Below are positions 1-36,278 of a DNA stretch of 64,000 nt, in pieces (position 1 is the stretch's first letter; each line of letters opens with the position of its first letter). The stretch comes from an uncultured Gemmatimonadales bacterium. GTDB lineage: Bacteria > Gemmatimonadota > Gemmatimonadetes > Gemmatimonadales > GWC2-71-9. Where the stretch lies: the NCBI GenBank assembly GCA_963828735.1, contig CAWHFW010000005.1, positions 160,001 to 224,000 of the forward strand, read 5' to 3'. The position numbers and the translations under genes are program-made. The notes beneath the pieces are model-generated. The model saw only the letters and a list, made by a program, of their open reading frames with translations, was not told the DNA's origin and made no database searches.

Positions 1-480
1 ACGACCGATCGAGCCATTGAACAGCACGTCGCCGCCGAACACGCGGTCGTGCCCGACGAAGCTCACGCTGCCCGGCGAATGGCCGGGCGTGTACCGCACG
101 TCGAAGGCGAAGCGACCGACCCGCACCGCCGTGCCCGGCTCGAGGTCCACGTCGGGCGGGGGCGGTGGCTCCAGCTGCATGCCCACCCACGCGCCGAACT
201 GAGGCAGGGCATCGTAGATCCCGCGGTCGAGCGGATGCAGGTGGATAGGAACGCCGGTGGCTTCCCGGATCGCGCCGACGCCCAGAATGTGGTCCACGTG
301 CGCGTGCGTCAGCCAGATCGCCCGGAGATGCCAGGCGCGAGTATCGAGCTCGGCGAGAAACATCGCGGGCTCTTCACCCGGATCGATGATGACCGCCTCT
401 CGGGTTTTGCGGTCGGCCACGAGATAGCAGTTTTCGGCGAACTGCCCGTTGGCAAGCGACACCACCTCCAGCTCAGACAC
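1..480 (-). CDS. MBL-fold metallo-hydrolase (glyoxalase II/YcbL-like), 3' end runs off window
   Basis: Manual translation from GTG at 480 (overlaps trxB stop): SELEVVSLANGQFAENCYL...WLTHAHVDHILG (HxHxDH)...YTPGHSPG...VFGGDVLFNGSIGR. Not in the ORF track because it has no stop in the window. Confidence 0.9.
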   Translation of the reverse strand, partial: MSELEVVSLANGQFAENCYLVADRKTREAVIIDPGEEPAMFLAELDTRAWHLRAIWLTHAHVDHILGVGAIREATGVPIHLHPLDRGIYDALPQFGAWVGMQLEPPPPPDVDLEPGTAVRVGRFAFDVRYTPGHSPGSVSFVGHDRVFGGDVLFNGSIGR

Positions 481-1438
481 CGACCTGCGCCCCCACCGCG
501 CCCGTCCGCCGGTCCTTGAGGAATTTCTCGACCGCGATCGCCGCCGTGGTGGCGTCGCCGACGGCGGTGGTGACCTGCCGGGTCAGCTGGACGCGGAGGT
601 CACCCGCCGCGAACAGGCCGGGAATGGACGTCATCATGCGGTCGTCCGTGACCAGGTAGCCGCTAGCATCGTGGGTGACGTGCTGGGTCACCAGGCCGGA
701 GTTGGGGCGGAAGCCGATGAACACGAAGCAGCCGGTCGCCCGGAGGGACTGGCGCTCGCCCGTGACGGTGTCTTCCGTCTCGATGGACTGCAGACCGGCC
801 GGTCCGCCCTTGAGCTCGAGCACGCGCCGGTTCCAGATCACCTCGATCTTGGGATTCGCGAACAACCGCTCCTGCAGGATCCTGGACGCGCGGAATTCGT
901 CGCGGCGGTGGATCACGTACACCTTGGCCGCGTAGCGCGTCAGATACTCGGCTTCCTCGACCGCCGCGTCGCCGCCGCCCACCACCGCGATCGTCTCGCC
1001 CTTGAAGAAGGCGCCGTCGCACACCGCGCAGTAGGACACGCCCCGACCCGCATACTCGAGCTCGCCGGGCACCTCGAGCTTGGTGGGCGTGCCGCCCGCC
1101 GTGAGAATCACAGCCGGGGCCTCATACACGGTGCCGTTCGTGGTGCTGACCTCGAAGATGCCGTCCTCGCGCCGGCTGATCGTCTCCACATTCTCCTGCC
1201 GGATGTCGGCGCCGAACACCTTGGCGTGAGCCGCCATCTTGTGCGCGAGCTCGCGGCCGAGGACGTGCTCGAAGCCCGGGTAGTCGTCGATCCATTCCGT
1301 ATTGTTGAGCTCGCCGCCGGGCAGGCCGCGCTCGAGCAGGACCGCCTTGAGCATGCCGCGCCCCGCGTACATGGCGGCACAGAGGCCCGCCGGGCCTCCG
1401 CCCACGATGATCAGCTCGAACTCCTCGGTACGACTCAT
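473..1438 (-). CDS. trxB: Thioredoxin-disulfide reductase
   Basis: GGGPAG FAD motif, GRGVSYCAVCDG redox CxxC, VVGGGDAAVEEA NADPH motif, TSIPGLFAAGD. Start taken at ATG 1438 (MSRTEEF) inside ORF 473..2164. Confidence 0.95.
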   Translation of the reverse strand: MSRTEEFELIIVGGGPAGLCAAMYAGRGMLKAVLLERGLPGGELNNTEWIDDYPGFEHVLGRELAHKMAAHAKVFGADIRQENVETISRREDGIFEVSTTNGTVYEAPAVILTAGGTPTKLEVPGELEYAGRGVSYCAVCDGAFFKGETIAVVGGGDAAVEEAEYLTRYAAKVYVIHRRDEFRASRILQERLFANPKIEVIWNRRVLELKGGPAGLQSIETEDTVTGERQSLRATGCFVFIGFRPNSGLVTQHVTHDASGYLVTDDRMMTSIPGLFAAGDLRVQLTRQVTTAVGDATTAAIAVEKFLKDRRTGAVGAQVGV

Positions 1439-1599
1439 CGCATCCCCGTCGTGTGGTTGGACAAATATAGAACGCTCAGGGGTTCCCGCACCCGCGTGTC
1501 GCGGCGGCGGCCGCGCACGCCGCCAGGCGCCGAGCACCCGATCGGAACGCCCACCAAGGCCGGCACGCGTACGCTCGTATGCCCTGCGTGGGCAACGTC

Positions 1600-2376
1600 T
1601 TACGAATGGGCCGCCGAGGAGACCGGCGGCCCAAGGTGCAGCAGGCTGGCCGCGCCGTGGCAGGAGGAGATCGTCCCCACGAGCACGTCGGTGGGCTCCA
1701 CCGCAGCGCCGGCCCGCGCCACGACCGTGTCCCCCTCGAGCACGGTCGAGACGTCGAACATGCCCACCCCGTACACGCGGTGACGGCAGGTGAACAGGAC
1801 CGGCCCGGCGGTGGGGGTGTTTCGATTGAGCCGTCGAACGAGCTCCTCCATCGCCTCGGCCATCTCCCAGGTCCGCGGAGCGCGGATCACGGGACAGGTC
1901 GCCGGCTCGATGCAATGGGTGGGACACAGCCAATCGGCGAACGACACATAGCGCGTGCCGTCGGGCGCCCGCACGTCGTACGGCGTGCCGGGGCCCATGG
2001 CGACCGGGTGCGGCTCGACGACGCGCCCGGGCCAGCGCGCGCGTGCGCGCCGGACCAGCCAGTCGTACATCAGATGAGGCATGAGGGGCGACGGTACGAT
2101 GGCGTCCGGAGGGCCCGAGCGATCCACGGCCGCGGCGAGGTAGCGATCGAAGAACGCGCCCCACTCTTCGACGACGATGTCGATGCCGGGCGCGGCGCCG
2201 AGCTCGACCGCCGCCCTGCAGCGGGGATCACGGTCCACCACCAGCAGGCGCTTCCACTCCGCCGCGCCACGCTCGCGGGCCTTGAGAAGCTGGCCCGCGT
2301 AGAAGCGGCCGTAGCAGCCGCCCCCGACGATCACGACGTCGCCGAGCGCGACGCTATCGGATGAGACGGCCGCCAT
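1600..2376 (-). CDS. Uncharacterised protein: N-terminal Rossmann-like motif plus Cys/His-rich C-terminus
   Basis: VVIVGGGCYG dinucleotide-binding-like motif; WLCPTHCIEPATCP, TCRH and SSCHG motifs; high-GC3 coding pattern. Start uncertain. Confidence 0.75.
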   Translation of the reverse strand: MAAVSSDSVALGDVVIVGGGCYGRFYAGQLLKARERGAAEWKRLLVVDRDPRCRAAVELGAAPGIDIVVEEWGAFFDRYLAAAVDRSGPPDAIVPSPLMPHLMYDWLVRRARARWPGRVVEPHPVAMGPGTPYDVRAPDGTRYVSFADWLCPTHCIEPATCPVIRAPRTWEMAEAMEELVRRLNRNTPTAGPVLFTCRHRVYGVGMFDVSTVLEGDTVVARAGAAVEPTDVLVGTISSCHGAASLLHLGPPVSSAAHS

Positions 2377-3085
2377 CCACTACCAACACCTCCCCCGTCA
2401 CATAATCGCCGCCCTCGAGCAGGTAGAGCAATGCGGCGGTCGCATCGGCAGGTGTGCCCAGCCGTTCGAGCGGCGTCGTGCGCGCGAGGCGCTCGCGCTC
2501 GTCCGCGTCGTACTCCTCCGGCACCAGCACGGCGCCCGGCGCGATGGCGTTCACCGTGACCTCGGGGGCGAGCGCACGGGCGAGCACGCGCGTCAGCATC
2601 ACCACCCCGGCCTTGCTGACCGAATGCGCGGCGAAGCCGGGCCAGGCCTCGAGGCCGCTCAGATCCGCCAGGTTGACCACCTTGCCGCGAGCCGCCCGCA
2701 GGGCCGGCGCCGCGCCCTGGGTGCAGAAGAAGACCGACCGGAGGTTCAGGCTCAACACCGCATCGTACAGCGCGGGGGTCGTGTCCTCGAACGAGACCCG
2801 GTGCATCACCGCCGCCGAGTTGACGAGCACGTCGAGGCCGCCCAGCTCCGCCACCACGCGACGAGGGAGCTCGGCCGCGGCGGCCGCATCGGTGAGGTCC
2901 GCCGCGAAGCAAGCGGCACGACCGCCCGCGGCGGTGATCTCGTCGCGGAGCGCCGTCGCGCCTGCGCCCGAGCGGTGATGATGGATGGCCACGGTCATGC
3001 CGCGCGAGGCGAGGGCGCGTGCCATCGCCTGACCCAGCCGGCGACCGGCGCCGGTCACCAGCGCGATCCGGCCCGGAAGCTCCAT
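2354..3085 (-). CDS. SDR oxidoreductase, pteridine reductase (FolM/PTR1)-like
   Basis: TGAGRRLG (Arg typical of pteridine reductases), VLVNSAA, HSVSK at the YxxxK position, VNAIAPG, VDGG. Confidence 0.85.
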   Translation of the reverse strand: MELPGRIALVTGAGRRLGQAMARALASRGMTVAIHHHRSGAGATALRDEITAAGGRAACFAADLTDAAAAAELPRRVVAELGGLDVLVNSAAVMHRVSFEDTTPALYDAVLSLNLRSVFFCTQGAAPALRAARGKVVNLADLSGLEAWPGFAAHSVSKAGVVMLTRVLARALAPEVTVNAIAPGAVLVPEEYDADERERLARTTPLERLGTPADATAALLYLLEGGDYVTGEVLVVDGGRLIR

Positions 3086-3816
3086 CAGCCGGCGGCGCGC
3101 GGAGCGATCGGCCGGATCTCCCCGGTGGGCGCGGAGGGACCGGACACCGCGAGCGCCAAGACGCCGTTCGTCAGGTCGTCCATCTCGACGTACGCCGCGC
3201 CTTCCCCCGCGGAGGCGACGTTGTCGCCGGTCCGGGCCATGCCGGGGGCGACGGCGTTGACGCGGATCTGCCGATCGGCCAGCTCGAGGGCCAGGCTGCG
3301 CGTGAAGCCCGCGACCGCCGCCTTGGCGGCGGAGTAGACGGCCATCGGGCTCTGCGGATCGAAGTAGGCGATGGACGCGAAGTTGATGATGCAGCCGCGC
3401 GTGGCGGTCAGCGCGGGTATGGCGGCCTGGGACACGAGCACCGCGGTCTTGAGATTGATCGCCAGCTCGCGGTCGAGGTCCTGCGCCGTGAGCTGCTCGA
3501 TCGGTCCGTAGGTGGTGAGCCCGCCCGCGACGTTCACCACCACGTCCAGCCGGCCGAAATGGCGGAGGGCGATCTCGACGGCGAGGGCCGCGAGGTCAGG
3601 CTGAGTCAGGTCGCCGGCGCAGGGCCTGGCGTCGACGCCAAGCGCCGCGAACTCGCGGACCCGCTCGGCCACGCCCACGGCATTGACGTCGCACGCCACG
3701 ATCCGGGCGCCAGCATGGCCGAACGCCAGCGCCACCGCGTTGCCGATCTGCCCCGGCCGGCCCACGCCGGTCACGAGCGCCACCTTGCCGCTGAAGTCGA
3801 ACGCCGGTGCCGTCAT
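3085..3816 (-). CDS. SDR family oxidoreductase
   Basis: TGVGRPGQIG, NVAGG, YSAAK, VNAVAPG; stop overlaps next start (TGATG). Confidence 0.9.
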   Translation of the reverse strand: MTAPAFDFSGKVALVTGVGRPGQIGNAVALAFGHAGARIVACDVNAVGVAERVREFAALGVDARPCAGDLTQPDLAALAVEIALRHFGRLDVVVNVAGGLTTYGPIEQLTAQDLDRELAINLKTAVLVSQAAIPALTATRGCIINFASIAYFDPQSPMAVYSAAKAAVAGFTRSLALELADRQIRVNAVAPGMARTGDNVASAGEGAAYVEMDDLTNGVLALAVSGPSAPTGEIRPIAPRAAG

Positions 3817-3819
3817 GTC

Positions 3820-4257
3820 TCACCTCAGTGCTGCGAGCACGATCTCCGCGCCGGGGGCACCCGCCTGGCTGTAGGCCACCCTCCCGTCCTCGTCGATCAC
3901 GACCACCGAGCGCGCGATGGACGCTCCATCGGGCCGGAGCGCGCCGTAGGCCCCGGCGATGGCGAGCCCAGGATCCGACAGGAGCGGAAACGGCAACCGG
4001 AGCCGAGCGGCGTAGCCCGCGTGACTCTCCGGGGACGCGGGGTTCACGCCGAAGGGATGAACCCGCTTGTGCTCGTAGAGGGGCAGGTCGTCGCGCACGG
4101 CGGACAGTTGCCGATTTCAGCCGGGCGTGTCGTTGCCCGGATAGAACGCCAGCAGCACCCGGTGACGGGCGAGCAGGTCGTGCAGCACGTATGTCCGCCC
4201 GTCCGACGCCTGCGCGGAGAATGCCGGCGCGATGGTGCCCACCGCGACGAGGCTCAC
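3820..4257 (-). CDS. Peroxiredoxin (AhpC/TSA, BCP-like), putative selenoprotein with Sec at the peroxidatic position
   Basis: ORFs 4117..4311 and 3820..4098 are the same frame separated only by TGA at 4117-4119: LLAFYPGNDTPG-[TGA]-NRQLSAVRDD matches PxxxTxxC. PFPLLSD and catalytic Arg (IARSVVVID) follow. GTG start at 4257 overlaps the PHP stop (GTGA). 145 aa with read-through. Confidence 0.88.
4082..4116 (-). promoter_or_regulatory. Candidate bacterial SECIS hairpin directly 3' of the UGA
   Basis: mRNA UGA-AAUC-GGCA-ACU-GUC-C-GC-[CGUGC]-GC-GAC-GACC-UGCC: lower stem GGCA/UGCC, upper stem GUC(C)GC/GCGAC, apical loop begins 17 nt after the UGA with G at loop position 2. Folded by eye. Confidence 0.55.
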
Positions 4258-5105
4258 GAGACGACCGGTGCGGCGCGCCCGGCCCGCAGCTCTTCCAGGC
4301 GCTCCAGCCACTCGAGCGGCACGTCCTGCGACCCCAATGCGCCGTGGGTCTCGCCCGGCTCGGGATCGCCGTGCCAGTCGCTGCCGCCGGTGCGGAGGAG
4401 GCCGAGCTTCAGGGCGATGCCGGTGAGGCGCGACCGGAGATCGGCGTCGTGACTGGGATGCCGGACCTCGACCGCATCGAGACCCTCGCGCTTGAGCCGC
4501 TCGAGAAACGCCCGGGTGCCGCGCTCCTTGGGATGGGCGAGCGACACCATGCCGCGAACCGAGTGCACCACGTCGGCCACGTCGCGGAACCCGGGCAGGA
4601 TCTTGTCCACGAAGGCCGGGCGGCCGCGGCCGATGTAGCGGTCGAACGCGTCGGAGATGTCGATGGCGCTGCCCTGGCTGACGATCGCTCGGGCGACGTG
4701 GGGCCGGCCCACCGCCCCGCCCTTCGACTGGAGCAGCACGTCGTCGAACTCGAGATGCACGCCCAGATGCTGCAGGCGGCTCACCATCTCGCGGCCGCGC
4801 CGCACCCGGTCGGCGCGGCGCCGCTCCAGAAACGCCTCGAGCTCAAGGGATTCGGACGGCAGGAAGTAGCCGAGCACGTGCATCTCGCCCCAGGGCGCGG
4901 CGCAGCTGAACTCGCAGCCACCGACCACGCGGAGCCCCACGCGGTCGCCGGCAGCGGTGGCCGCGGCCACGCCCGCGACGGTATCGTGATCGGTGAGGGC
5001 CATGGCCGAAAGGCCCGCCGCGTGCGCCCGCCCCACCACGGCTTCCGGCGGAAGGCTTCCGTCGGACGCCGTGGAGTGCACGTGGAGATCGACCACGCCG
5101 GCCAC
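4254..5105 (-). CDS. PHP-domain phosphoesterase (YciV/TrpH-like)
   Basis: DLHVHSTASDG, ALTDHDT, GRPHVARA, LAHP, TGGSDWHG motifs. Confidence 0.92.
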   Translation of the reverse strand: MAGVVDLHVHSTASDGSLPPEAVVGRAHAAGLSAMALTDHDTVAGVAAATAAGDRVGLRVVGGCEFSCAAPWGEMHVLGYFLPSESLELEAFLERRRADRVRRGREMVSRLQHLGVHLEFDDVLLQSKGGAVGRPHVARAIVSQGSAIDISDAFDRYIGRGRPAFVDKILPGFRDVADVVHSVRGMVSLAHPKERGTRAFLERLKREGLDAVEVRHPSHDADLRSRLTGIALKLGLLRTGGSDWHGDPEPGETHGALGSQDVPLEWLERLEELRAGRAAPVVS

Positions 5106-5122
5106 CAGCGCGCCGGTGGCGG

Positions 5123-5389
5123 TCAGCGGCGGTACCCCATCTCGGGCGCGGTCCAGGACGGTTGCGAGTGCGCCAGCAGATCCCTGAGCTCCTGCTCGCT
5201 CAGCTGGCTCAGCGACAGTTCACGACTCTTGGCGCCGAGCGGGGTGTAGCGCACCACGCGCTGCTCCCGGTTCGGGCCGGTGCCTTTGCTGAAGACCAGG
5301 CCGAACTCGTCCTTCGTGTACTGGGTGACCCGACCGCTGACGGCGACCTCCCACGGCTCCCCGTCCACCTCGATGATACGTCTCGGCAT
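5123..5389 (-). CDS. Small hypothetical protein (88 aa)
   Basis: ATG at 5389 overlaps upstream TAA (TAATG) with GAGGAG SD; MPRRIIEVDG...WTAPEMGYRR. Confidence 0.75.
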   Translation of the reverse strand: MPRRIIEVDGEPWEVAVSGRVTQYTKDEFGLVFSKGTGPNREQRVVRYTPLGAKSRELSLSQLSEQELRDLLAHSQPSWTAPEMGYRR

Positions 5390-5691
5390 TACGCGTCGCT
5401 CCTCACTTCTTCCCACAGGTCCCAGGCGCCGGAATCGTAGTCGGCGACGGCGCGGATCGTGGCTTCCAGCCGCCGCTCATCCTCCGGCGGCGCCGCCACC
5501 GCCCGGTGCGTGACCTCGTCGCGGCTCTCGCTGCACTCGAGAAACTGGTCCGCCCGTCCCGCGCGGCGGAATACCCAGAGATGCCGCCCGCGCGCCTCGT
5601 GCAGCGCGGCCAGCGCGCGCACCGCCGCCAGGTATTCGTCCTCCCGCCCCGCACGCACCCTCACCCGCGACACGGTGAGCGTGCGGGGCAC
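5389..5691 (-). CDS. Small hypothetical protein, possible ABM-like dimeric alpha/beta fold
   Basis: Abuts E2 stop; VSRVRVRAGREDEYLAA...HLWVF...QFLECSE pattern resembles antibiotic-biosynthesis-monooxygenase-like folds (inference). Confidence 0.7.
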   Translation of the reverse strand: MPRTLTVSRVRVRAGREDEYLAAVRALAALHEARGRHLWVFRRAGRADQFLECSESRDEVTHRAVAAPPEDERRLEATIRAVADYDSGAWDLWEEVRSDA

Positions 5692-7113
5692 TCAGACCGC
5701 GCCTTCCGGGAACTCCTGCAGGGAACGCTTGACTTCGGCCATGAACCGGTCGGCGTCGGCCCCGTCCACGATCCGGTGGTCGAAGGCGAGGGACAGCATG
5801 CCCTTGGTCCGGATCGCCAGGGTGTCGCTCCCATCCACGGTGATCACCGCCGGCTGCTTTTCGATTGTACCGACGCAGAGGATGGCCGCCTGGGGCTGGT
5901 TGATGATCGGGGTGCCGATCACCGAGCCGAACACGCCCGGGTTGGTGATGGTGAAGGTGCCTCGCTGTACGTCGTCCGGGCTCAGCTTCTTGGTGCGGGC
6001 GCGCTCGCCGAGGTCGTTGATGGCCCGGGCGATCCCGATCAGGGACAGCTCGTCGGCGTGCTTGATGACGGGGACGATGAGTCCCCAGTCGAGCGCCACG
6101 GCGATGCCGAGGTTGATGTCGCGCCGAAAGACGGTGCTCTCGCCGCTCACGGCGGAATTGACGCTGGGGTGCTTCCGCAGCGAGTCCGCCACGGCCTTCG
6201 CGATGAACGCCAGGTACGTGAGGCTCACGCCGCGATCGGCGTATTCCTTCTTCGCCTTGGCGCGGATCTGGGCCACCCGCGTGTAGTCGATCTCGAAGAT
6301 GGTGTTCACGTGCGGCGACACTCGCCGCGACATCACCATGTGTTCGGCCGTGAGCTTCCGGATCCGCGACCACGGCTCGACCCGGTCGCCGGGCCACGCC
6401 TCGACAGCGGGCGCGGCGGCGGGCACGGATGTGGAGGGCGCTGCGGCCGCGGGCCGGGGCGCGCTCGCCGGCGCGACGGCGGGCGCGGCCGAGGGGGCCG
6501 TGCCCGGGCCTCCTTCGATGTAGCTCAGGATGTCGTTCTTGGTGACCCGGCCGGCGAGACCGGACCCGGGAATGGCGCTCAGATCGAGATTGTGCTCGGC
6601 CGCGATCTTCCGAACGAGCGGCGTCGACTTCCGCCGAAGGCGCTCCTCCGCGCTCTCCACGCCGTTGCCGGCGGCGGCATCGCCCGGCGCACGTCCGGTG
6701 GCCTCGGCGGCCGCCCGTGTCGCCGGCGCGGGAGCGGCCGGCACCGGGGTCGGCCTCGGGGGCGCCGAGGCGGCCGGAGTCGGGGTGGCCGCAGTCGGGG
6801 CGGAGGCCGCGGCAGGCGGAGCTGGTGACGCGCTCGGCGCGGGGGCCGACGGCGTCGTAGCCGGCGCGGCCGCCTCGGTCTCGATCGTCGCGACGACCGT
6901 TTGCACCGCGACGGTCTGTCCCTCGGTCACGAGGATCTCGGACAGCACGCCGGCCACCGGCGAGGGAATCTCCGCGTCCACCTTGTCGGTCGAGATCTCG
7001 AAGATCGGCTCGTCGCGTTTGACGGGCTCGCCCACCTTCTTGATCCAGCGCGAGAGGGTGCCTTCGGCGATGGACTCGCCCATCTGCGGCATGATCACTT
7101 CAATCTTGGCCAT
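5692..7113 (-). CDS. 2-oxoacid dehydrogenase E2, dihydrolipoamide acyltransferase
   Basis: Lipoyl domain EISTDKVDAEIP, Ala/Pro linker, E3-binding domain (TPLVRKIA...GSGLAGRVTKND), catalytic GTFTITN and FDHRIVDG. Confidence 0.95.
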   Translation of the reverse strand: MAKIEVIMPQMGESIAEGTLSRWIKKVGEPVKRDEPIFEISTDKVDAEIPSPVAGVLSEILVTEGQTVAVQTVVATIETEAAAPATTPSAPAPSASPAPPAAASAPTAATPTPAASAPPRPTPVPAAPAPATRAAAEATGRAPGDAAAGNGVESAEERLRRKSTPLVRKIAAEHNLDLSAIPGSGLAGRVTKNDILSYIEGGPGTAPSAAPAVAPASAPRPAAAAPSTSVPAAAPAVEAWPGDRVEPWSRIRKLTAEHMVMSRRVSPHVNTIFEIDYTRVAQIRAKAKKEYADRGVSLTYLAFIAKAVADSLRKHPSVNSAVSGESTVFRRDINLGIAVALDWGLIVPVIKHADELSLIGIARAINDLGERARTKKLSPDDVQRGTFTITNPGVFGSVIGTPIINQPQAAILCVGTIEKQPAVITVDGSDTLAIRTKGMLSLAFDHRIVDGADADRFMAEVKRSLQEFPEGAV

Positions 7114-7126
7114 GGTCGGTCTCCAG

Positions 7127-8104
7127 CTAGTACGCCGCGAGCCAGCGCGCGGCCCGCACGATGTCCGGGGTCTGCGGCAGCACGAAGTCCTCGAGCTGCG
7201 GCGCGTACGGAAGCGGCACGTCGTGCGCGGCCACGCGCCGCACCGGCGCGTCCAGCCACTCGAAGGCCTGCTCGTTGATGCGGGCGGTGATCTCGCCGGC
7301 GATCCCGCCGGTCGCCGTATCCTCGTGGACGATGAGCACGCGATTGGTCTTCTTCACGGTGGCGAGGATCGCCTCGTCATCCATCGGCAGCAACGAGCGC
7401 AGATCGAGGACCTCCACGGAGAGGCCGTCTTCCCGCTCGAGCTGCTCGGCGGCCTCGAGCGCCTTCCACACGGTCGCCGCGTAGGTGATGATGCTGAGGT
7501 CGCGCCCCTCGCGGGCCAGCCTCGCCTTGCCGATGGGCACCACGTGATCGCCCTGGGGCAGCTCTTCCTTGATGCGGCGGTACAGGTACTTGTGCTCGAA
7601 GAACAGCACGCAGTCGTCGTCGCGGATGGCGCTCTTGATCAGGCCCTTGGCGTCGCTCGCCGTCGCGGGATAGACGATCTTGAGCCCGGGCGTGTGCAGG
7701 AAGGCGGCCTCGGGGTTCTGCGAGTGGAACGGTCCGCCGCGCACGTACCCGCCGCTCGGACCGCGCACGACCATGGGGCACGGGAGGAAGGCGCGATAGC
7801 GCGCCGTCGCCACATAATTGGTCAGGATGCTGTACGCGCACGAGACGAAGTCGATGAACTGCATCTCGCACACCGGGCGCATCCCCATGTGCGCCGCCCC
7901 CGCGGCCGCCCCGACGAAGCCGGTCTCGCTGATGGGCGTGTCGACCACCCGCTCGGCGCCGAACCGGTCGAGCAGTCCCTCGGTGACCTTGAACGCGCCG
8001 CCGTACGCGCCGATGTCCTCGCCCAGGCAGAAGACGCTCGGATCCCGCTCCATCTCCTCGAACAGGCCCTGCCGGATCGCCTCGAGAAAGGTCGCCTCAG
8101 CCAT
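7127..8104 (-). CDS. 2-oxoacid dehydrogenase E1 beta subunit (branched-chain type likely)
   Basis: Start ATG 8104 MAEATFLEAIRQG; GEDIGAYGGAFKVT, DTPISE, EMQFIDF, GPFHSQ. Confidence 0.95.
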   Translation of the reverse strand: MAEATFLEAIRQGLFEEMERDPSVFCLGEDIGAYGGAFKVTEGLLDRFGAERVVDTPISETGFVGAAAGAAHMGMRPVCEMQFIDFVSCAYSILTNYVATARYRAFLPCPMVVRGPSGGYVRGGPFHSQNPEAAFLHTPGLKIVYPATASDAKGLIKSAIRDDDCVLFFEHKYLYRRIKEELPQGDHVVPIGKARLAREGRDLSIITYAATVWKALEAAEQLEREDGLSVEVLDLRSLLPMDDEAILATVKKTNRVLIVHEDTATGGIAGEITARINEQAFEWLDAPVRRVAAHDVPLPYAPQLEDFVLPQTPDIVRAARWLAAY

Positions 8105-9200
8105 CGTGCGTCCCCCAGCTCGCCGGGCGCTCGTGCCGGTCCACGGCGGCCCGGATCCCCGCGCGATACCACAGCGCCGGAGCCTCGGGCGGGTCGGCAT
8201 AGATGCCGACCAGGCAGTCTCGCGGCTCGGGCGGCGGCGACCGCTCGGCGAGGTCGGTCGCGTCGTCGATCTCCGTCTGCACCCGCGCATCGATCGCCGC
8301 CAGCTCCTCGGTGCCGATCGCCTCGGTCGTCGTGAGCCGCTGGGCGTAGCGGTGGAGCGGGTCGTTCTCGCGGGCCCACCGGTCGATCTCGCCGCCGGGA
8401 ACGTACGACTGGTTGTCGTGCTCGGCGTGTCCCTTCCGGCGGTAGGTCATGAGCTCGATCAGCGTGACGCCCTCGCCGCGCCGCGCGCGGGCCACCGCGT
8501 CCCGGGTCACCTGGTAGGCCGCGATCACGTCGTTCCCGTCGGCGCGCACGCCGGGAATGCCGTAGCCCGCCGCTTTGTCGGCCAGCCGCTCGGCGGCGCA
8601 CTGCTTCGACGTGGGCGTGGAGTAGGCGTAGCGATTGTTCTCGATGATGACCACCAGCGGGCAGCGCTGGACCGCGGCCAGGTTGATCCCCTCGTGGAAG
8701 GCGCCGGTGGAGGTGGCGCCGTCGCCCACGTAGACGAGACCGACGCGCGGCTGCTTCCGCATCTTGAAGGAGAGCGTGACTCCGGCCATGACCGGCACCA
8801 TGTCGCCCAGATGGGAGATCTGGCCGATGAAGTTCCGCTCCTCCACGTCGCCGAAATGGATGTTGAGCTCGCGGCCCCGGGTCGGGGAGTCGCCCTTGGC
8901 CATGTACTGCCGCAGCACCTCGAGCGGCGCGGCGCCCTTGACCAGCATCGAGCCGAGGTTCCGGATCAGCGGGGACAGGACGTCCTCGCGTCCCAGCGCG
9001 TACGCGGTCCCGACCGCGCAGGCCTCCTGCCCCAGCGAGCGGAACAGTCCGCCGACGACCTTGGTCTGACGGTAGAGGTTGACCAGCCGCTCTTCGAGCG
9101 ACCGGGTCAGGCGCATCCAATAGTAGAGTTCGAGGAGTTGTTCCCGCGACAACCCCGCCCGGGCGGCCGGATCGGAGGCGAGAGTGCTGGTGACGGCCAT
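8097..9200 (-). CDS. 2-oxoacid dehydrogenase E1 alpha subunit (TPP-dependent)
   Basis: TPP motif GDGATSTGAFHEGIN...ENNRYAYS, TYRRKGH. Start ATG 9200. Confidence 0.93.
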   Translation of the reverse strand: MAVTSTLASDPAARAGLSREQLLELYYWMRLTRSLEERLVNLYRQTKVVGGLFRSLGQEACAVGTAYALGREDVLSPLIRNLGSMLVKGAAPLEVLRQYMAKGDSPTRGRELNIHFGDVEERNFIGQISHLGDMVPVMAGVTLSFKMRKQPRVGLVYVGDGATSTGAFHEGINLAAVQRCPLVVIIENNRYAYSTPTSKQCAAERLADKAAGYGIPGVRADGNDVIAAYQVTRDAVARARRGEGVTLIELMTYRRKGHAEHDNQSYVPGGEIDRWARENDPLHRYAQRLTTTEAIGTEELAAIDARVQTEIDDATDLAERSPPPEPRDCLVGIYADPPEAPALWYRAGIRAAVDRHERPASWGTHDG

Positions 9201-9365
9201 GCAAGTCCCGGTTGGAGGAGGCGTATTCCGGGCTGGAAAATCCACACCCGCAGGAGGAGAGTCAAGCGAGCGGCGCGCGCTGCCACGGACCGTCCGACTG
9301 CATAGTTATCTGGTCGCCTGCATATGCCGAACGGCCGCGCGAACGCCCGGTGCTCGGAGCCGCCG

Positions 9366-11018
9366 TCAGGCGAGCGACGGGAGGAACTGCGGCGCCTTCC
9401 GGTGGGTGGTGATCTGCTCGAACGCGAACGCCAGCCCGATGAGCACGGGCTCGCTCCAGACCGGGCCGATGAAGGAGAGATTCACCGGCAGGCCCCAGGC
9501 GTACCCCATCGGCACGCTGACGCTGGGGTAGCGCGCGACCGCCGCGGGCGTCGAGCTGGAGCCGGTGAAGTGGTCGCCGTTCACGAGATCGGTCGGCCAG
9601 GCCGGGTTCCCGGTCGGTGCGACCAGCGCGTCGAGGCGATGCTTCGCGATGACCACATCGAGTCCCTGCGCTCGCGCGAGCCGGCCGCACGTGGCCAGCG
9701 CCTTCTTGTAGCCCGCCTCGCTCAAGGGGCCTTTCGCCTCGGCCTGCACGAACAGCTCCTGCCCGAAATACGGCATCTCGCGCTCGCGCTCCCGCTCGTT
9801 GAACGCGATGACGTCGGCCAGCGAGCGCACCGGCGCCTTCGGGCCCAGGGCCGTGAGGTAGGCGTTGAGGTTGGCCTTGAGCTCGTAGAGCAGCACCTCC
9901 AGCTCGGCCGCGTCGTACTCGCCGGCGTGTGGAATGTCGGCCGGGTCGATCACGACCGCCCCTTCCCGTCGAAGAACCTCGATGGCCGCCTCGGCCAGGC
10001 GGTCGGTGACGTCGCTGTACCCGAAGAACTTCGCGCGCGCGACGCCGATGCGCGCGCCGCGCAGACCATCCTTCTTGAGGAACGCCGTGTAGTCCGCCTC
10101 GACGTGCCCGGTGGCGGCCGAGGTGGACGTGTCGCGCGGGTCGGCGCCGGCGAGCGCACTCAGCAGCGCCGCGGCATCGCTCACCGTCCGGCAGAGCGGA
10201 CCGGCCGTATCCTGCGTGTGGGAGATCGGGATGATTCCGGCGCGGCTCACGAGCCCGACGGTGGGCTTGATGCCGACCACGCCGTTGGCGGACGCGGGGC
10301 ATACGATCGAGCCGTCGGTCTCCGTCCCCACCGCCACCGCGCCGAAGTTGGCCGACACCGCCGCCGCCGAGCCGGAGCTCGAGCCGCAGGGATTGCGATC
10401 GAGCACGAACGGGTTGCGGCACTGGCCGCCGCGCGCGCTCCAGCCGCTCGACGATCGGTTGGACCGGATGTTGGCCCACTCGCTCATGTTCGCTTTGGCG
10501 AGGAGGACCGCGCCGGCCGCGCGGAGGCGCTCGGCCACGTGCGAGTCCTGGGTCGCGATCGAGCCCTCGAGGGCGAGGGACCCGGCCGTCGTCGTCATCC
10601 GGTCAGAGGTGTCGATGTTGTCCTTGAGGAGCACCGGAATACCGTGGAGCGGCCCCCGCGGCCCCTTCGCCGCCCGTTCCTCGTCCAGCTGCCTGGCCAG
10701 CTCGATCGCGTCCGGGTTGGTCTCGATGACGGCCTGGACCGACGGTCCGGTCCGGTCCATCGCGGCGATACGGGCGAGATACTGCTCCACGACGCCCCGC
10801 GCCGTGTAGCGACCCGAGGCCATGCCCGCCTGCAACTCGGCGACGGTGACCTCCTCGAGCTCGAACGGCGGCGCCGCCGGAGGTGAGTACGGAGGCGGCG
10901 CCGCCTCGGCGTTCGCGCGCGCGTCGGGTACTCCGATGCCGCCGGCCGCCGCCGCGCCGAGGACGGCCACGTGATTCAGGAACGCACGGCGGGCGAGCGG
11001 CTCGCGCGGATCGGGCAT
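9366..11018 (-). CDS. Amidase-signature family enzyme with Tat signal peptide
   Basis: ARRAFL twin-arginine motif after ATG 11018 (GGAG SD); LLKDNID, CGSSSGS, GTETDGSIVCP (Ser-cisSer-Lys triad). Confidence 0.92.
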   Translation of the reverse strand: MPDPREPLARRAFLNHVAVLGAAAAGGIGVPDARANAEAAPPPYSPPAAPPFELEEVTVAELQAGMASGRYTARGVVEQYLARIAAMDRTGPSVQAVIETNPDAIELARQLDEERAAKGPRGPLHGIPVLLKDNIDTSDRMTTTAGSLALEGSIATQDSHVAERLRAAGAVLLAKANMSEWANIRSNRSSSGWSARGGQCRNPFVLDRNPCGSSSGSAAAVSANFGAVAVGTETDGSIVCPASANGVVGIKPTVGLVSRAGIIPISHTQDTAGPLCRTVSDAAALLSALAGADPRDTSTSAATGHVEADYTAFLKKDGLRGARIGVARAKFFGYSDVTDRLAEAAIEVLRREGAVVIDPADIPHAGEYDAAELEVLLYELKANLNAYLTALGPKAPVRSLADVIAFNEREREREMPYFGQELFVQAEAKGPLSEAGYKKALATCGRLARAQGLDVVIAKHRLDALVAPTGNPAWPTDLVNGDHFTGSSSTPAAVARYPSVSVPMGYAWGLPVNLSFIGPVWSEPVLIGLAFAFEQITTHRKAPQFLPSLA

Positions 11019-35792: not shown

Positions 35793-36278
35793 CTACGTGA
35801 GCGTGCGCAGCTGCGCCAGCAGCTCCGCGTTCTCTCGGCGCGTGCTCGGCGTCTTCTCGGCGTACGTCCAGCGGACGATGCCGTTCCGATCGATCAGGAC
35901 GTAGGCCCGGTTGGAGAAGAATCGCTCTTCGATGAGGGCGCCGTATCGGCGGCTCACCTCGCGCCTGAAGTCGCTCAGGAGGTCGATCGTGAGTCGTTCC
36001 TTGGCCTTGAATTCCTTGAGCGTCGGCACGGAGTCCACGCTGATCGGCAACACGACGGCGTCGGCACCCTGGAACTCCGCGTAGTCCTCCGTGAACGCGG
36101 ACATCTCGTTGGTGCACGTCTTGGTGAACGCCAGCGGGAAGAACGCGAGCAGCACCTTCTTCCCGCGGAGCTGCGAGAGTGTGATGTCGATGTCGGCCGT
36201 GGACGGCAGCGTGAAGTCCGGCGCCGTCGATCCCACGGCGGGGAGCGCATGCCCGGTCGCCAGCGTCGGAGACGCCAT
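35793..36278 (-). CDS. Peroxiredoxin, AhpE-like (single Cys)
   Basis: APDFTL, FFPLAFTKTCTNE, LLSDF, NRAYVLID. Confidence 0.92.
   Translation of the reverse strand: MASPTLATGHALPAVGSTAPDFTLPSTADIDITLSQLRGKKVLLAFFPLAFTKTCTNEMSAFTEDYAEFQGADAVVLPISVDSVPTLKEFKAKERLTIDLLSDFRREVSRRYGALIEERFFSNRAYVLIDRNGIVRWTYAEKTPSTRRENAELLAQLRTLT

Follow-up and report, generated by a model that had tools for sequence, protein, structure and literature searches.

The window, i.e. the whole stretch of 64,000 nt that was analysed, carries a co-oriented run of genes that includes one for a small peroxiredoxin (Table 1). The minus-strand translation of 3820-4257 contains a single internal stop at residue 47, in the context FYPGNDTPG*NRQ. 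A gene caller sees two ORF fragments at this site (4117-4311 and 3820-4098). The first-pass annotation had read them as one frame broken by nothing other than this TGA, which the translation confirms. It had further placed the TGA at the peroxidatic position of a PxxxTxxC motif, in a protein that keeps the catalytic Arg and has no Cys. Translation and alignment agree on all of these points, the read-through product containing zero Cys residues. The overlap with the upstream gene as GTGA and the gap of 3 nt on the downstream side were likewise found as described.

Among related loci with enough flanking sequence, the upstream PHP-domain gene is present in 62 of 74, and a match to the short-chain dehydrogenase (SDR) gene directly downstream was found in 67 of 75. 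The thioredoxin-reductase-like gene is located 2.4 kb downstream of the peroxiredoxin in the same orientation and within the co-oriented run. It occurs in all seven loci that offer at least 2.5 kb of downstream flank. Two more genes of the cluster on the minus strand (5123-5395 and 1600-2376) are conserved and have no Pfam match; the one of 90 aa was matched at 70 of 76 related loci. Positions 1-9500 yielded no sigma-70 promoter, nor did any terminator-like site turn up from the PHP gene to the thioredoxin-reductase-like gene, whereby the counts match those of shuffled sequences and an operon is not claimed on this basis.

Table 1. Features of the peroxiredoxin locus and related genes. Positions refer to the window; those with the contig label C5 refer to the genome that holds the window (G000).
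Feature	Position	Strand	Details
Sec-peroxiredoxin gene (predicted)	3820..4257	minus	GTG start, 145 aa with U47, TGA stop, BCP/PrxQ-like fold
In-frame TGA, peroxidatic position, predicted selenocysteine	4117..4119	minus	TGA in 71/76 distinct orthologous CDS, TGC in 5
PxxxTxxU active-site motif (P40, T44, U47)	4117..4140	minus	P40 and T44 in 71/71 TGA genes
Catalytic Arg116	3910..3912	minus	invariant in alignment; in 71/71 TGA genes
SECIS-like hairpin within codons 51-57	4087..4105	minus	apical loop about 4095-4099, 17 nt past UGA
PHP-domain gene, upstream	4254..5105	minus	stop overlaps peroxiredoxin start as GTGA
Short-chain dehydrogenase (SDR) gene, directly downstream	3085..3816	minus	3-nt gap
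Thioredoxin-reductase-like gene	473..1444	minus	Pyr_redox_2 match, CxxC in translation
Distant 1-Cys peroxiredoxin	35793..36278	minus	~30% identical to Sec-Prx, long separate branch in tree
Second Sec-peroxiredoxin (L079, predicted)	G000:C5:2109877-2110266	minus	signal-peptide-like N-terminus, SxxU-type motif, own conserved hairpin
SelW/Rdx, 75 aa, CxxU (L125)	G000:C5:2254921-2255145	plus	TGA in 55/55 matches among 61 genomes
Fdh-like genes (L124, L126)	C5:23127-24401 and C5:2563615	minus	in-frame TGA and strong hairpin

The Pfam AhpC-TSA match (PF00578) spans the TGA, covering residues 6-129 (E 1.8e-28, 99.4 bits vs. a cut-off of 26). An AlphaFold model built with an alignment reaches a pLDDT of 95.7 and places residue 47 on a helix formed by residues 45-56; the single-sequence model was discarded (pLDDT 38.5). 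Foldseek hits are peroxiredoxins, with Bcp1 (3drn) as the best (E 3e-15) and TM scores of 0.84-0.91 to Bcp1 and AhpE. The same structure, 3drn, is the best sequence match among solved structures (E 6.6e-18). The sequence and fold features of a peroxiredoxin, namely PF00578 above cut-off, the PxxxT/SxxC(U) motif together with the catalytic Arg, and a thioredoxin fold (in the predicted model), are all found.

Three named families were rejected. PrxU identity (NF040737, a 233-position model) scored 33.8 bits vs. a cut-off of 270, the BCP equivalog (NF006960) 58.6 vs. 140 bits and PrxQ (NF053650) 56.2 vs. 260 bits. Since the scores stay below the BCP and PrxQ equivalog cut-offs, we file the protein as BCP/PrxQ-like and not as BCP. 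It shares a short form without C-terminal extension with BCP/PrxQ (3drn Bcp1, 5enu) and the 1-Cys AhpE (1xvw, 4x0x), whereas the Cys of these proteins is replaced by a predicted Sec. From the 2-Cys BCP of the same genome the Sec-peroxiredoxin family is separated by a long branch in a quick tree.

Sec peroxiredoxins and UGA recoding are already established, and the gene is a predicted member of a known selenoprotein family. The bacterial Sec-Prx family (PF00578, TxxU / PxxxTxxU) is listed in Table 1 of PMC13188914, Table 3 of PMC5029168 counts 91 proteins in 78 organisms, and earlier counts are given in PMC1794560. An experimentally verified member, PrxU of Eubacterium acidaminophilum, is cited in PMC13188914. 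Common to this family and our gene are PF00578, PxxxTxxU, one (here predicted) Sec, a UGA with a downstream bSECIS-like hairpin and a host with selA, selB, selC and selD. Our gene differs in lineage, Gemmatimonadota being unmentioned in the main texts of PMC13188914 and PMC5029168, in its hosts, which are mostly aerobic soil bacteria, and in that 45 of the 71 TGA members described below have no Cys at all. With PrxU (NF040737) it shares the Sec, predicted in our gene, at the peroxidatic position; in contrast, the Gemmatimonadales protein comprises 145 aa and the host of PrxU is a strict anaerobe. A literature search by titles and abstract openings returned no paper on selenoproteins of Gemmatimonadota, which supplements may list. 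The terms 'selen' and 'peroxiredoxin' are absent from the main texts of PMC10581226 and PMC9426454, and 'Gemmatimonad' is absent from PMC12013277. In the 2016 supplement of PMC5029168 the single Gemmatimonas row gives Gemmatimonas aurantiaca as negative for all Se traits.

Logan contigs spanning 4117-4119 with unchanged codon come from two DNA runs (X1 and X5) and from one RNA-library run (X15). The X1 contig covers 3275-4386 with one differing letter elsewhere (3818), the X5 contig 4079-4721 and the X15 contig 3901-4580, while contigs of X17, one of five RNA runs with small shares (X16-X20), do not reach the TGA. Such contigs show neither strand nor expression level, and X15 is possibly DNA carry-over, so that they attest the sequence and not its transcription. 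The labelled runs containing the sequence are soil and rhizosphere metagenomes. The question whether reads would carry TGC or TGT instead is thus answered by independent contigs from three runs, all with TGA.

The nearest named relatives are Gemmatimonadales MAGs. In 61 genomes (the genome holding the window, G000, and 60 relatives) a match at E ≤ 1e-20 was found in 38, and all 39 matches carry exactly one TGA. Hence the TGA is not there by chance. A draw of 201 genomes from the phylum, including three flagged as unpublished (G106, G198 and G221), yielded 58 matches, 53 with TGA and five without. We compared codon 47 in 76 distinct orthologous coding sequences of Gemmatimonadota, derived from 83 loci analysed with five distant loci (L036-L040) left out. 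It is TGA in 71 and TGC in five. The best 120 hits in protein databases comprise 88 short forms, which cover 63-66% of the query and mostly start at codon 54, and 32 full-length proteins, 31 of which have Cys at the catalytic position and one Arg. Relatives therefore share the TGA, other orthologs have TGC, and the UGA is aligned to a redox Cys at both the codon and the protein level, as the first-pass annotation had assumed. Its expectation that gene callers would split or miss the gene is borne out by the short forms. The full-length homolog with Arg (P0028) has an Arg codon one base from TGA and is possibly an error or an inactive allele. The underlying tree is a quick version with long-branch warnings, and no order of Sec/Cys events is claimed from it.

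Pooled NG86 dN/dS over 39 distinct TGA genes amounts to 0.275 for residues 3-46 and 0.294 for residues 59-145, at a dS of ~1.1 which is near saturation. Purifying selection downstream of the TGA is thus the same as upstream, and relaxed selection on the downstream half, which was to be checked, is not seen. Codons 48-51, between the TGA and an internal GTG, keep N-R-Q-L and vary synonymously. This pattern indicates that they are translated and speaks against a split gene with a restart at GTG 54.

The SECIS-like hairpin predicted downstream of the UGA has an energy of -11.8 kcal/mol in this gene and a loop of 3-5 nt with G in second position followed by U. In an RNAalifold run on 25 sequences the consensus structure was a hairpin of six pairs whose 5-nt loop begins 17 nt past the UGA. 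The bSECIS model described in PMC13188914 asks for a loop of 3-9 nt, a G in the first two loop positions, a distance of 16-37 nt from the UGA and an MFE of ≤ -7.5, and the hairpin of this gene conforms to it. The 12-nt hairpin core is identical in 69 of the 71 TGA genes and in none of the five TGC genes. All six consensus pairs and the loop G are retained in 69 of the 71, and the energy of -7.5 kcal/mol is reached by only 38 of the 71. Codons 52-55 are frozen: their majority codon stands at 0.99-1.0, compared with 0.46-0.80 for 17 conserved degenerate codons elsewhere. In the TGA genes, pair 15:33 occurs as C-G 54 times and as G-C 16 times and is unpaired once, and the covariation score was matched by 0 of 500 shuffles. 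Most occurrences of the compensatory swap fall in one clade, and it may be a single event. Folding of a 45-nt window points to a weak hairpin (z -1.83), and longer windows of 60 and 80 nt gave no significance (z 0.70 and -1.14). A distant member (L113, in G066) keeps the TGA with a different sequence at the site of the hairpin core and may use another SECIS form.

A search for the Sec machinery, as suggested by the first-pass annotation, found tRNA-Sec (selC), selA, selB and selD in the genome holding the window, whereby selA and selB are frame-broken in the assembly. The tRNA-Sec looks intact (65.2 bits vs. a cut-off of 47), and selD is intact and of the Cys type. Among the 61 genomes selD is present in 55 and selA in 54; across the phylum selA is found in 159 of 201 genomes. 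A selA match occurs in 50 of the 53 TGA-bearing genomes, the exceptions being G040, G221 and G224. As selA is common anyway (79% base rate), this co-occurrence lends modest support. From the five carriers of the Cys form, three have selA and selB and two do not. Three genomes without selA and selD (G049, G057 and G059) have no match to this peroxiredoxin. The SelD protein of relatives is a Sec form with one TGA in many and a Cys form in others, including the genome studied here, and both forms are mixed within one genus.

Four further genes of this genome have a TGA at the catalytic site, namely a second peroxiredoxin, SelW/Rdx and two Fdh-like genes. The second peroxiredoxin has the TGA in 30 of 35 matches and SelW/Rdx in 55 of 55 matches among the 61 genomes, whose three members without selA and selD carry no TGA in the second peroxiredoxin and gave no match to SelW/Rdx. 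Both provide a sharper control than the co-occurrence with selA. The second Sec-peroxiredoxin (C5:2110131) is probably exported. A genome-wide scan considered 68,557 TGA junctions, of which 323 passed and 61 were left after a motif filter; these candidates were judged by eye only, most others being adjacent genes. The scan recovered the two peroxiredoxins, SelW/Rdx and one Fdh-like gene, and the second Fdh-like gene came from a separate search. The five genes with TGA at the active site are a lower bound and not a census. A search of the genome for GrdB (PF07355) gave no match, with the control likewise silent.

The first-pass annotation had also pointed to a Cys paralog in the same window. 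This gene exists and contains one Cys, but at ~30% identity it is only a distant family member and not the Cys counterpart, and true Cys orthologs of the Sec-peroxiredoxin occur in other genomes. Overall the genome has 11 PF00578 matches, including one 2-Cys BCP, three 1-Cys peroxiredoxins and two Sec forms, which amounts to a large, redundant peroxide-defence set. Two full COX1 genes are also present, in line with the aerobic lifestyle that PMC10581226 describes for the phylum.

Taken together, we are highly confident that the locus represents an intact and conserved gene whose product, a small peroxiredoxin of BCP/PrxQ-like type, has a catalytic selenocysteine, as predicted from sequence comparison. 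The apparent stop in the middle of the gene almost certainly encodes this residue and leaves the gene intact. A sequencing or assembly error for TGC or TGT would be conceivable in an assembly that has indel errors, but the TGA recurs in three independent runs and in 70 other distinct orthologs, so that the chance of such an error is negligible. It is also extremely improbable that a split gene or pseudogene stops at the TGA and yields a 92-aa C-terminal part from the GTG of codon 54. Neither half would contain the catalytic residue, codons 48-51 behave as coding, and selection is equal on both halves. Moreover, each Cys ortholog is one undivided gene as long as the TGA genes, and the stop at codon 47 is always TGA (71/71), never TAA or TAG. 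Databases do annotate such fragments (88 of the best 120 protein hits) and GTG 54 is kept in 70 of the 71 genes; however, codons 52, 53 and 55 beside it are frozen too. UGA could further be read as Cys or Trp, either by a genome-wide code change or by a dedicated suppressor tRNA. UGA-to-Cys tRNAs have been reported in some bacteria, and with Cys the enzyme would also be active. Such decoding is hardly credible here, given that 59 of the 71 genes end in TGA as their ordinary stop, that ARAGORN at default stringency finds a UCA anticodon only in the 98-nt tRNA-Sec while tRNA-Trp has CCA, and that selection on the SECIS-like hairpin is confined to the TGA forms.

The frame breaks in the machinery raise a further explanation, namely that the Sec trait is decaying in this strain by real frameshifts in selA, selB and Fdh, and that the UGA now terminates. 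In the assembly selA lies in three pieces (C2:304860-305910) with two breaks in its Pfam match, selB in two pieces with one break (C2:158130), and the second Fdh-like gene also has a frame break upstream of its Sec codon. Three breaks in selA and selB exceed the ~0.1-0.2 expected from the background rate in orthologs (6 breaks in 206 kb or 0.03 per kb; 0.058 per kb on contig C2). However, the essential rpoB is frame-broken in the same assembly (C2:623130-623400), and the peroxiredoxin gene itself shows no decay. Moreover, a 96%-identical contig (L156) encodes an intact SelA of 452 aa, from which the genome studied here differs by three single-base insertions; this comparison with an independent contig covered selA only. 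Owing to the intact selA in this contig, the breaks in selA, selB and rpoB are probably consensus errors of the assembly, and we regard a decaying Sec trait as unlikely. A hexamer frame-switch detector, tried as a measure of assembly error density, was rejected because ordinary junctions between genes overwhelmed it (17-44 calls per 100 kb).

With selenocysteine at residue 47, SelB carrying Sec-tRNA would bind the hairpin that lies 17 nt beyond UGA 47, whereupon Sec would be inserted. Such a SelB-dependent insertion is suggested by the comparative evidence in combination with the established bacterial pathway. Sec47 would be located at the start of the active-site helix, together with Pro40, Thr44 and Arg116, and, judging from the family, would reduce H2O2 or organic hydroperoxides, being converted to a selenenic acid. 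As the protein has no Cys, it would act as a 1-Sec enzyme and depend on an outside thiol for resolution. Among 1-Cys peroxiredoxins this role falls to a small thiol or to a Cys of another protein, and a resolving Cys is missing from about one third of PrxQ (PMC4749874). Its absence is hence common in PrxQ, and a 1-Sec cycle with an outside thiol would be the default. The proposal of a 1-Sec peroxiredoxin without resolving residue is supported, with no Cys in the protein and the TGA conserved in relatives. Cys119 was rejected as an essential resolving residue; it is present in only 22 of the 71 members and most are without it. The reducing partner is the least certain step. The thioredoxin system would be the most likely one, with the reductase-like gene in the same conserved cluster as a candidate electron source from its position only. 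This link may be incidental, since genes of central metabolism lie in the run as well. Alternative reductants could be a small-molecule thiol or the SelW/Rdx selenoprotein of the genome.

The gene family corrects a systematic annotation error, as the active site is missing from 88 of the best 120 public hits, which are fragments. Sec/Cys exchange and the constraint on SECIS elements can also be examined in a natural set of 71 TGA genes that have a frozen, covarying hairpin and five Cys genes without it. A small Cys-free 1-Sec peroxiredoxin would moreover be a model for the resolution of a selenenic acid without internal thiol. For the phylum as a whole, the use of selenium appears to be common in a major and mostly aerobic group of soil bacteria on which the surveys cited above are silent or, from one genome, negative; this bears on the selenium demand of soils.

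A bolder reading, which we consider rather doubtful, is that Gemmatimonadota, which are abundant and mostly aerobic in soils, are overlooked selenium users whose defence against O2 stress relies on Cys-free 1-Sec peroxiredoxins recycled without an internal thiol. Recycling might then proceed via an Se-N (selenenylamide) state or via the co-occurring SelW/Rdx selenoprotein. The basis is selA in 159 of 201 genomes and at least five TGA-at-active-site genes in the genome studied here. According to PMC13188914 aerobic bacteria rarely retain selenoproteins. If true, the bolder reading would contradict this statement and add a recycling route that we did not find described for peroxiredoxins in the sources cited here.
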